A model generated the notes under the pieces. It did not search any database. It saw nothing but the letters and a program-made list of their open reading frames with translations, and was not told the origin of the DNA. From Ascidiella aspersa (taxonomy: Eukaryota), in the NCBI GenBank assembly GCA_963924565.1, contig OZ004614.1:3472001-3536000 (forward strand): a DNA stretch of 64,000 nucleotides, in the 5' to 3' direction. Positions 18,336 to 27,836 of this stretch are shown piece after piece. A program made the translations under genes and the position numbers. Each line of letters starts with the position of its first letter. Within the stretch, counting starts at the first letter, position 1.

Positions 18336-21300
18336 ATGCCAATCGCCCAAACTCGCAGTTGGCTACAAAACAAGAAACAGTCAGCAGTCGTTCCAATGGC
18401 GGGCAGAGCGGCCCAAATGTACGCCGAAATTTCGGAGATAAGCAACTACTGTGAAGCTGTGCCCTTGAACAGAGGCCAGGTAAGGATTCAAACGTAAAAC
18501 TAGTTAATTTTGGGGGTTTGTTTCAGTTTTAACTCAAGACATAGATACCCAAGGCCTGTCGGCATTCTGTGGCAGATGCACACTCGTGATGTCATTTTTG
18601 AAATTTTCAACGGATGGGGCCTTAAAGGTTAAAAAAAAGTCTTTTGGAAGGGGATGGGGGTAACTTGGTATATCGAACTACATTTTTGGCATATTTTTAA
18701 TTTGTTGTAAATCCTTTTTACTCACAGGCGCCGTACCATTTAAAATTGAAAGTTTTTAGAAGACTTGAACGATTTAAGGCGATTTTTCGTTTTGCGTGAA
18801 TCAACAACATCTTTGTAATGAAGCTTTTGTGTTGAAAGTACCACTTTTGTAATTCAAACTTTAAACAATATACGAGTCTGCTGGTGTTTCTAAGATTAAT
18901 TCTTTATGACGTCACGTGTAGACGAGTTTTCGGTTATTTGTTTATTGTTTCGAGTGATATCACGATGACAAATAGGTTGAGGCGGCTTATTAAATCAGGT
19001 AAATCCTTCGGTTAATATTCGTTTTGTTTATCTAAAATGAGGTCATTAAAAAAGAACCAACCATTTTTTTAATCTACTGTCGTTATTATACGAGTCATTA
19101 TAGACCTGAAGTCAATCTAACTTATTGTTAATTTTATGTTGCACTATGTCTATGGCGGTCTTAAGGCTATTTTTAGCAAACCGTAATATCCAGTGGTGGT
19201 ATTCAATTTTTTGTCAGCCGGTTCTATCACAAAAGTCATATTTTTTCGGCGAATAAACTAAATATTTTTCATATATACGGCAGAAGTTCGTTTCACCTTG
19301 ACTGTTACGTGCTTAATTAGCACTACAAAATTATCACCGGTTGCTAATTACGCCGACTGTAAATTCTAACATTCATTATTAATTTTGCGCCTTTGTTCTT
19401 AAATGTAGGGCTAGGAATTAGGTTTTCGCATTTCGAGACATGTATAATTGTATATTAACGTAATATTCTTGTGCGCTGTGGTGTTCGCCGTTAATTGGAC
19501 TTTAGACATGTTTTTTCCTGTCTCCAAACATTTCTGCAAATCTCACAATCATTTATCGCTTATTTTCCGGCGCGGTTTAACTTCTCACTAAAAGGTCCGC
19601 CCAATGTTATCTTTCCACGAAACGGCCGCCCTGTAAGGCGGGCCTGGGGTTTCCGGAGGGCGTCGGTTCCCGTGAAAAGGAGTTTTGTTTTAGCGTATAT
19701 TACGAGCGGCTCACCGCCTACAGCGGGGAGAGACGTCTGGGTGTAGCCTTGTGAAATTAGCGAGTAAAACTTTAAGTTTCATTATGCTCTGTCTGTCGCC
19801 TTTGTAAGTAATTGTGTGTGTCTAAGTGTCATTATTGTTTGTGGTGTGGAAATATTCTACTCTTGCAACCAATACATCTGTACATTGGGTTTTCTTGTTG
19901 TGGTCTTTAATATAAGTTCTCTTTGGTAGGTTATTTATTGCCCGAAAATTAAGGACTCACAGCGACTTTACAGGAGGCCTAGGTAATTTTCTAGAATTAC
20001 TAGTAAAGTCGTAACATTGACCATTGCACATTTTGAAAGAACAACGTGAGCTACTTTGATCTCAAGAATCGGGTGTATTAGATAAGATCCAAAACTCCAT
20101 TGACAGTCATTGACTCGCTAACCGGTTAGCTGATCTCATAAATTTCGTAAGACGGTTCGATAGAACTGGTGCGAACCGGCTGAATCCTGCCACTGGTAAT
20201 ATTCTAACCAGGGAGAAAAATGGAAAAACTTTCGTTCCAGTAGTGTAATATGCAACTAAAATCTTAGTTCAAACACATTCAAATAGATTGTGAAAAGGCC
20301 GGGTGAAAAAGGGACATGGCCTGGTACAAAAGAAACGTTTTACCGTCACTTGTACCTATAAAAATCATTACCGTAACCCCGTTCCCGACCGTTTGTCTTA
20401 CCTTTACCACTGGACCCAGCCACTTTAATTTGCAAATTCTGTTTTAAAAGCAGTGGTTCTCAAACTGTGTGCCTCGCTTGCTTTAATAGATTGTGAAGTG
20501 CACCGCGAACTTTTTTTCATCTTTTAAAAACACCGTTTCGCAAAAACATAAAGACGTTCATTCGACAATTAAATGCACACTATCGGTTAGAATTAGAGGA
20601 ATGGTAAAATTACGTGTCTTTGGCTCTACCGTTTTAACAAGAGGGAGAAAGCATGCTAGCGGCCATTCGCTTAGCAGAAAGTGGGTTTCTATCACTTTTG
20701 TTTTCCTAGCCATCTGAAAAGGTTGCGGAGCACTGTGAATAGAGTAAACCAGTGTTTCTTAACCCGGTCGCGAGCCAACATTCAGCAGCCTTTTGTTTTG
20801 GTTGGGTCGCCGACTGCAGTAGTTTTATTCGGTTAGGTTTATTGAGATTGATTCTGGGCTAGATTTCTAACAGTTAATAAAACTGTGCAAGAAATACGAA
20901 ACCGTGACTCCTATTATTTAAATCCGAATATATTTATTCAATGTGTTTTATATTGTGTTCACTTACAAATAGTCCAATTCGAAGGTTGGGTCGCTAAACC
21001 TTCGATCTTATAATTATGTTAAGTCGTTGCACAATAAAAGGTTGATAAACACTTGAGTAAAGGCAGTTTGACCTATCCAAGGAAAATATACTCAATAGTA
21101 GAAATCACAAAACCAACTTTTAGATTTAGAAATAAAATTACCAGAGGAGCTGTTTTTTGATTTATATTACCATGTCTGGTAGCAACAGTTTATATACTTA
21201 ATAGTATTTGCGCACAAAGTGACATCAGGATATGCCCGCAATGCGTGGCCCGAAAATGGAAACAGTGGGATTGTAAAACAATAAACACAAACGTTTTGAA

Positions 21301-27300: not shown

Positions 27301-27836
27301 TGAAAACCACACACAGCATTCGGAATATATATTTTTTCCAGTTGTTTCAAAAATAGCTCGTTTAAAAACTCTGCTAAAACATATTTTACTTTCTTTAAAA
27401 GCATTAAGCCACTGGGTACGGAAAACGATTTCCATGTAGTGTACTACAACGTGGAACCTCACTGGAAATGTTTTTTTTTTAGTACCGTATTACTATTTTT
27501 AAAAACTAAATAGAATTCTCATTTTAATTCCATTTAACGTTTCGATTCCTAAAAGCTCAATTGCACAACCTAAAAACTTGCGATTTTTAAGGTGCCGGCA
27601 GACCCACTCCGGGCGGCGTCACCCCACCCCCCAGGCCTCGCAAGCCGAGTTCCCCGACGGCCGTGGCGCCCCACGGAACCGGCCGGAACCTGCCCAAACC
27701 CGAGTGCGACTTTCTAGTGGCTCAACTTCGCAACGTGAAGGCTTACCTGGACGAAATGGTTGACGACGGTTTCGATGAGAAGACAGTCAACATGCAGTGC
27801 CTTGATTCCGTCATCAACGCGCTCACGTGCCACTGA
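18336..27836 (+). CDS. Uncharacterised 191-aa proline-rich protein (3 coding exons)
   Basis: Exons 18336-18479 (acceptor tctcag ending 18297, in-frame TGA upstream of the ATG, donor CAG/gtaagg), 21604-21790 (tag/..., /gtaagt) and 27592-27836 (ttttaag/, stop TGA). Phases 0 and 1 join into one frame. The exons are GC-rich islands in AT-rich introns. Confidence 0.75.
19191..20195. mobile_element. Non-autonomous hAT element (~1 kb)
   Basis: Ends CAGTGGTGGTATTCA...AGCCGGTTC / GAACCGGCTGAATCCTGCCACTG; 8-bp TSD GTAATATC/GTAATATT. Confidence 0.8.
20750..21054. mobile_element. hAT-type MITE (related copies at ~3850-4321 and ~60482-60713)
   Basis: CAGTGTTTCTTAACC left end, shared GGGTCGCCGACTGCAGTAGTT subterminal block, flanks GAGTAAAC/GAGTAAAA. 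Confidence 0.65.
21873..22110. repeat. 57-bp tandem repeat (4 full units) inside a GGGATGTCCGATA-type MITE; family copies at ~9897, 11757, 15915, 54440, 55440
   Basis: Unit TCCGATAATATCGGATCGGCGCCGATACCCGATGCCAAGTGTTGGTATCGGTACTCG starts at 21873, 21930, 21987 and 22044. Confidence 0.92.
24035..24205. repeat. 51-bp minisatellite (~3.3 units)
   Basis: Unit TAATTTCCCATACACCGAGCCTCAAAAGGTTGCCTACCAGTGYACTRCGTG; a partial copy lies at ~23977-24003. Confidence 0.9.
26395..26696. mobile_element. hAT-type MITE family (other copies 5825-6103, 23135-23446; partial at ~35351 and ~63335)
   Basis: CAGGG...AAGAACCCCTG termini, shared CCATGGACCCCAGTTT subterminal motif; TSD GTCTATTG/GTCTATGG. Confidence 0.8.

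Follow-up and report, generated by a model that had tools for sequence, protein, structure and literature searches.

A Three-Exon Gene of Ascidiella aspersa from a Family of Small Uncharacterised Ascidian Proteins, and Its Possible Role as a Phosphotyrosine Scaffold

Gene structure and transcription

A stretch of 64,000 nucleotides from Ascidiella aspersa (assembly GCA_963924565.1, contig OZ004614.1, positions 3,472,001 to 3,536,000 of the forward strand), referred to here as the window, carries at positions 18336-27836 (+) a gene with three coding exons, the focal gene. Both of its introns have GT-AG borders, and direct translation of 18336-18479, 21604-21790 and 27592-27836 gives 191 amino acids followed by a TGA stop, in agreement with the spliced product proposed in the initial annotation. 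The parts of the gene are as follows.

18336..18479, plus strand: coding exon 1, 48 codons (translation and RNA joint)
18480..21603, plus strand: intron 1, phase 0, with a high-copy repeat inside (joint in X5 reads and X2 contig)
21604..21790, plus strand: coding exon 2 (translation and RNA joint)
21791..27591, plus strand: intron 2, phase 1, joint deduced from splice sites and paralogue phase
27592..27836, plus strand: coding exon 3, including the stop codon (translation)

The GC content at third codon positions (GC3) of the coding sequence is 0.68, compared with a GC content of about 0.36 for the window. Upstream of the ATG there are an in-frame stop and a strong AG acceptor (18296-18297), which indicates that 18336-18479 is the first coding exon. 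Since the relatives described below begin nearer to the first tyrosine, a later in-frame methionine may be the true start. The acceptor may receive a non-coding exon from further upstream, or else a spliced leader, trans-splicing being known to occur in ascidians; no RNA depth was seen in 18150-18273.

Sequencing reads were aligned over window positions 18150-21865, a stretch that holds the first junction and ends before the second (21790/27592). X5 is an RNA run, about 6 in 100 of which was read, X1 is DNA-like, and the kind of X2 is not on record. The joint 18479/21604, for which a check in RNA had been proposed, is spliced in two X5 reads and in one X2 contig with a depth of 154, and it is absent from X1. 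The X2 contig departs from the genome at 21792 and carries 528 further letters, which would end at 28121 if joined to 27592. In all three paralogues in the same genome the last exon follows a phase-1 intron, as in the focal gene, and a crude scan of intron 2 found no other in-frame exon candidates. From the exit of the X2 contig, the paralogue phase and the lack of alternative exons, we infer that junction 21790/27592 is correct. Run X4 (organism B) left exons 1 and 2 uncovered at 90% likeness, and the run index has no holder of the focal sequence that is on record as RNA, which is evidence in neither direction. The focal gene is real, spliced and transcribed.

Polymorphism gives supportive evidence of constraint on the coding sequence. 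Seven X2 differences were counted in exons 1 and 2, four of which are not displayed, and each of the three displayed, which lie in exon 2, is synonymous (P 0.015). In comparisons of X1 contigs with the window, 1.7% of the non-coding letters are different; the 326 coding letters contain 0 or 1 difference, compared with an expectation of 5.5-5.7 (P 0.004-0.026). X1 may be the source sample.

Relatives and shared layout

Searches of the same genome place the three paralogues in a cluster at C8:3227761-3239957, about 260 kb from the focal gene; their hairpins (see below) are 29-35% identical. Paralogue D (C8:3230976-3232113, minus strand) keeps the tyrosine motif and the hairpin and nothing else of the family, and in paralogue C (plus strand) the linker is rich in Lys and Glu and Yxx[ILV] is missing. 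A profile scan of 13,927 open reading frame (ORF) pieces over 369 kb around the paralogues found no fifth hairpin, the rest of the genome being covered by single-protein searches only. A 367-codon open frame whose C-terminal half is rich in Ser, Arg and Pro adjoins the cluster at C8:3249705-3250805 (+).

A profile of four hairpins searched against 1.84 billion representatives at a threshold of E 0.001 returned 21 matches, 15 of which are true members. The other six (P0011, P0016 and P0018-P0021) were dropped as repeat-inflated, and the cluster member P0025 is unrelated. Given three paralogues and 15 relatives, the orphan status first given to the protein no longer stands, and sequence comparison makes the focal gene a member of what may be called the LOC100186212-like ascidian family. 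Five of the 15 members are named, all of them uncharacterised: LOC100186212 (XP_002130097) and LOC108950073 from Ciona intestinalis, H2ZD76 from Ciona savignyi, and LOC143473136 and LOC143453880 from Clavelina lepadiformis. The label 'ascidian' rests on these five, the other ten being unnamed. Hairpin identity to the focal gene is 54% for LOC143473136, 50% for LOC100186212 and 46% for H2ZD76. The named relatives have the same order of elements as the focal gene where they are full length; the focal gene differs from them in its longer N-terminal extension and in having PPPRPRK where they have PPRPPK. P0004 as a query recovers focal exon 3 at E 1.3e-10, and a tree of 18 hairpins (52 columns), with good support for just two inner branches, does not single out the orthologue.

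Two word-index protein searches were empty, and one also missed the known members P0010 and P0023, both within the span of lengths that it covered, so that these blanks are uninformative on fused forms; a third returned five proteins, all of them already-known members. Two loci among 249 candidates of a metagenome scan were rejected, both lying in high-GC unrelated ORFs. A literature search by accession and topic, with supplementary tables outside its reach, turned up no title devoted to the family, and the papers that it returned for accessions dealt, judging by the listing, with other subjects; as Ciona papers use other gene identifiers, published expression data may nevertheless exist. As far as tested, and judged by sequence, the family defined here appears to be undescribed and lineage-specific. 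The initial annotation had described a lineage-specific, undescribed signalling or cytoskeletal adaptor, and this description survives in so far as all named relatives are uncharacterised ascidian proteins and the proline motif is their best conserved part; what has to be given up is the notion of a protein without paralogues or orthologues.

Ten distinct full-length genes were compared: the focal gene, its three paralogues, P0003, P0004, P0007, P0017, P0010 and P0026; the near-duplicates P0022 and P0023 were not counted. All ten have the hairpin, and a central helix and a Yxx[ILV] motif upstream of the helix are each found in nine. The order in the focal gene is tyrosine motif, central helix, proline motif and hairpin. 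These four elements are selectively conserved. Among the five full-length database members, column identity is highest in the last proline motif (0.79), followed by the helix (0.45) and the hairpin (0.42), compared with 0.06-0.17 for the linkers. An AlphaFold2 model of the orthologue P0004 has a disordered tyrosine region, one helix at 29-56, a disordered linker and a hairpin at 112-154; the predicted template modelling score (pTM) is 0.36, helix and hairpin are not packed against each other, and there are no strands. Neither Pfam nor the sequence gives a sign of a signal peptide, a membrane segment or a catalytic fold. The focal protein is thus predicted, by way of this model, to be small and mostly disordered with a helix-linker-hairpin layout.

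This layout bears on the proposal that the protein has N- and C-terminal helical hairpins derived from an internal duplication, which might close into a four-helix bundle of the FAT/Abl-FABD/vinculin type. The P0004 model has three helices rather than four, with a single one in the N-terminal part where a hairpin had been supposed. The two segments originally held to resemble each other are identical at 2 of 15 positions, and their BLOSUM score of 17 was reached by 17% of 300 shuffles (p ~0.17), which lends no support to this pair as a sign of duplication. Fold searches with regard to solved members of the FAT, Abl-FABD and vinculin groups gave generic hairpins only. A different pair fares better: when the central helix is aligned with the final helix of the hairpin, the profile score is 7.7, slightly above chance (p 0.007 if columns are shuffled freely, p 0.037 if the shuffles preserve the hydrophobic pattern), and in paralogue B one word of five residues recurs in the central helix and in hairpin helix 1. 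An old duplication may therefore link the central helix with the last hairpin helix, though an internally duplicated protein closing into a four-helix bundle is very improbable.

Motifs, central helix and hairpin

The elements of the focal protein map to the window as follows.

18420..18461, plus strand: tandem tyrosine region YAEI-x5-YCEAV, candidate kinase and SH2 sites (motif conservation)
21619..21666, plus strand: central amphipathic helix KIEEMLFRIRRIDKSM, with Ile/Val/Leu at heptad positions a and d (in nine of ten genes; the single helix 29-56 of the P0004 model)
21706..21726, plus strand: PSVPPKP, first proline motif, PxxPxK type (counterparts aligned in P0003, P0004 and P0007; column identity 0.36)
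27624..27647, plus strand: PPPRPRKP, PxRPxK of the Gab1/Gab2a/Themis type, predicted ligand of the C-terminal SH3 domain (C-SH3) of Grb2 (motif match)
27690..27833, plus strand: helical hairpin of about 50 residues with an acidic turn and invariant Cys, Val and Lys, the family-defining domain (profile, AlphaFold2, alignment)

The PxxPxK, PPPRPR and YAEI motifs picked out in the initial annotation are thus present, as are four S/T-P sites. Ile, Leu or Val stands at position +3 of 11 of the 23 N-terminal tyrosines, compared with a background of 0.157, and the resulting P of 3e-4 is too small because the rows are related. Tyrosines are denser upstream of the helix (13 in 274 residues) than in the linker (4 in 356) of six database proteins, and the tandem form Yxx[ILV]-x4-6-YC occurs in three of the ten genes.

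The central helix is likely to be a short coiled coil. Ile, Val or Leu occupies both a and d positions in eight of nine helices, the exception being P0017 with Thr at a2 and d2; the focal helix has Met at d1 and a3. A passage of PMC3653964 describes Ile/Val/Leu at a and d as favouring trimers. A match of exon 2 to the Pfam family HSBP1 (E 0.11, 12.8 bits, cut-off 28.6) was set aside as generic coiled-coil likeness.

The focal PPPRPRKP fits two ligand types, PxRPxK and PxxxPR. PxRPxK is found in seven of the ten genes and Px[RI]Px[KR] in nine, and shuffled proteins give PxRPxK in 0.2-2.4% of cases per protein; exact PPPRPPK is present in 4 of 11 rows, which represent three distinct genes. PPPRPPK(P) is mapped as a Grb2-binding sequence of Gab1 in a passage of PMC2175135 and is given as Grb2-binding in Gab2a and Themis in Table 3 of PMC5430726, and for Themis2 the part of PMC2903609 that deals with its PPPRPPK motif describes proline mutations that lower Grb2 binding. 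The CIN85/CD2AP-type PxxxPR to which the initial annotation pointed is indeed there in the focal gene, yet the type conserved in the family appears, by sequence, to be the PxRPxK of Gab and Themis.

Alternatively, the protein could be a cytoskeletal or endocytic adaptor. Its hairpin would then bind a structural partner such as an actin-binding protein, a small GTPase or a membrane coat, and class II SH3 domains (CIN85/CD2AP, endophilin, cortactin or Crk) would take the place of Grb2 at its proline motifs. PxxPx[KR] occurs in 10 of 11 rows, and the focal gene and P0010 carry PxxxPR, which a passage of PMC2833206 gives as the CIN85 ligand consensus; these are, however, the only 2 of the 10 genes that do so. 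Similar hairpins bind GTPases, an example being the Ral-binding domain of RLIP76, matched at Z 7.1 with a root-mean-square deviation of 1.5 over 46 aligned residues, but many unrelated hairpins match equally well. A cytoskeletal or endocytic role is unlikely on balance, though well within reason.

The hairpin itself has Cys, Val and Lys invariant in all 13 aligned rows, and AlphaFold2 models the focal hairpin with a predicted local distance difference test (pLDDT) score of 93.5. Pfam has no family for exons 1 and 3 and none common to more than one of 8 or one of 13 family members, and the hairpin is a domain family with no entry in the Pfam copy searched. Fold searches with the hairpin and with the full-length model yielded no match at E 0.001, a result that excludes no family. 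The fold neighbours are generic: 636 chains reach Z of at least 5 and none reaches 8, the best Z is 7.4, and the BAG domain gives a template modelling (TM) score of 0.8. A PDB profile match to selenocysteine lyase (E 3e-4 and 2e-3) is taken as chance amphipathic likeness, since it covers one helix only and a second lyase entry scores E 0.19-0.24. The best ESM Atlas scores, 0.78 and 0.80, are leads only.

One of these leads would make the protein a remnant of the C-terminus of a BANK1/BCAP/Dof-type adaptor, the top ESM Atlas feature match of P0004 being a cluster of BANK1 fragments (score 0.80, 137 of 256 features). One third of shuffled proteins reach 0.8, however, and the family profiles match none of 2012 ORF pieces over the DBB-ankyrin gene of the genome (best E 0.14-0.46, none in exons), leaving such an origin barely conceivable. 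That gene, of the BCAP/BANK1 type, lies at C9:16948000-16966200 (+) and is followed by an EGF-repeat gene.

Proposed function and surroundings of the gene

Taken together, the sequence features suggest, with confidence somewhat above even, that the focal protein is a small, probably oligomeric phosphotyrosine scaffold that recruits Grb2. The PxRPxK motif would hold the C-terminal SH3 domain of Grb2, the predicted partner, or of a related adaptor, and the N-terminal tyrosines would recruit SH2 proteins once phosphorylated. The central helix, which may be free for another chain since helix and hairpin are not packed in the P0004 model, would oligomerise the protein and so cluster its docking sites. 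The C-terminal hairpin would most likely offer a surface for docking or dimerisation and thereby localise the scaffold, a part played in Gab by the PH domain.

Gab and DOS proteins have an N-terminal PH domain, and the focal protein is about a quarter of the length of Gab. Neither the focal exons nor eight aligned relatives have a Pfam match to a PH domain, and the P0004 model is without strands. Passages of PMC2175135 and PMC5430726 on Gab1, Gab2 and DOS describe a PPPRPxK ligand of the Grb2 C-SH3 domain in a disordered chain with tyrosine motifs, as in the focal protein. The focal protein differs from Gab in that its tyrosines are N-terminal and in having a central helix and a hairpin. By analogy, it likely works like a Gab-type docking protein without being a Gab member.

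The Themis architecture is built on CABIT domains, for which no Pfam match was found in the three focal exons or the eight relatives. Themis1 and Themis2, as described in part of PMC2903609, resemble the focal family in combining a PPPRPPK Grb2-binding motif with a regulatory tyrosine in a scaffold. DBB domains and ankyrin repeats are likewise without a Pfam match in the focal exons or relatives, the only DBB match of the genome being on another contig. The absence of PH, CABIT and DBB domains by Pfam indicates that the protein is not a Gab, Themis or BANK1/BCAP protein.

For the hairpin, the N-terminal dimerisation domain of SKAP2 could serve as a model: a passage of PMC10603853 describes this part of the Src-pathway adaptor as a hairpin of two helices, two copies of which associate into a four-helix bundle. 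The focal protein differs from SKAP2 in that its hairpin is C-terminal and in having no PH or SH3 domain. A resemblance in sequence between the two may exist; no SKAP chain was listed by the family profiles against PDB at E up to 10 or in the fold searches.

A number of points weigh against the Grb2-recruiting scaffold. All functional evidence for it is motif matching on related sequences; the ten compared genes are related, and their motif counts are not independent. The layout of the focal gene is read by way of an orthologue, P0004, whose model comes from a shallow alignment in which only 5 of the 17 rows are full length. Many partners of the SH3, WW, EVH1 and profilin type recognise short proline motifs, the focal gene has PPPRPRK and not the exact PPPRPPK, and P0003, P0026 and P0008 have another residue for the Arg of RxxK. 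An ITAM (a tyrosine-based activation motif of immunoreceptors), for which the consensus is Yxx[IL]-x6-8-Yxx[IL], occurs in strict form in none of the ten genes and in loose form in two, the focal gene not among them, and the focal gene has no YxN or YxxM sites. The exact trimer motif R-hxxhE is absent from all ten genes, R-hxxhD being present in three including the focal gene. The lack of Yxx[ILV] in paralogue C counts on the same side, and paralogue D keeps the hairpin with central helix and proline motif gone, so that the hairpin may carry the core function.

This last point leads to another account, according to which function resides mainly in the hairpin, which would engage a helical domain in some other protein as a dominant negative or decoy, and the N-terminal motifs are accessory and vary among paralogues. 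The hairpin is the sole element present in 10 of 10 genes, its three residues are invariant, and paralogue D shares nothing further with the family. Per-column conservation in the five full-length members is nevertheless higher in the proline motif than in the hairpin, and the central helix is kept in 9 of 10 genes, which makes an account centred on the hairpin quite improbable. Within the scaffold reading, a fuller picture may be drawn of ascidian miniature Gab-like scaffolds with a lineage of their own and no membrane anchor, in which a trimerising helix would cluster tandem phosphotyrosines and Grb2 C-SH3 ligands, the new 50-residue hairpin would target the cluster, and reduced paralogues would act as tuners or decoys; this picture is speculative and, in all its parts, rather unlikely.

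Elsewhere in the window, a two-exon gene of the basic helix-loop-helix leucine zipper (bHLH-ZIP) type (HLH 24.6 bits), presumably Mlx-like, stands head to head with an ENY2 gene without introns (PF10163, 119 bits), the pair lying at 37837-39216 (-) and 40814-41125 (+). ARAGORN finds three tRNA-Thr genes, including 16541-16614 (+) and 57545-57619 (+), and one tRNA-Thr gene is 1.7 kb upstream of the focal start codon. A 298-codon open frame at 57933-58826 (-) has no Pfam family above the cut-off (best DUF6816, E 0.017). The high-copy repeat of intron 1 has a contig depth of >10,000 in X1 and is abundant in RNA reads too, and a 57-bp tandem repeat family is also present. The repeat stretches are as follows.

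19142-20260; 11763-11884; 21872-22107: repeat stretches (intron 1 high-copy repeat, 57-bp tandem repeat family)

Lineage-specific adaptors rich in motifs are common, and the present family has no bearing on a long-standing open question. If the focal protein is indeed a Grb2-recruiting scaffold, a scaffold for docking Grb2 would have arisen, independently of Gab and Themis, in the closest invertebrate relatives of vertebrates, with linear motifs and a small new domain as its material.

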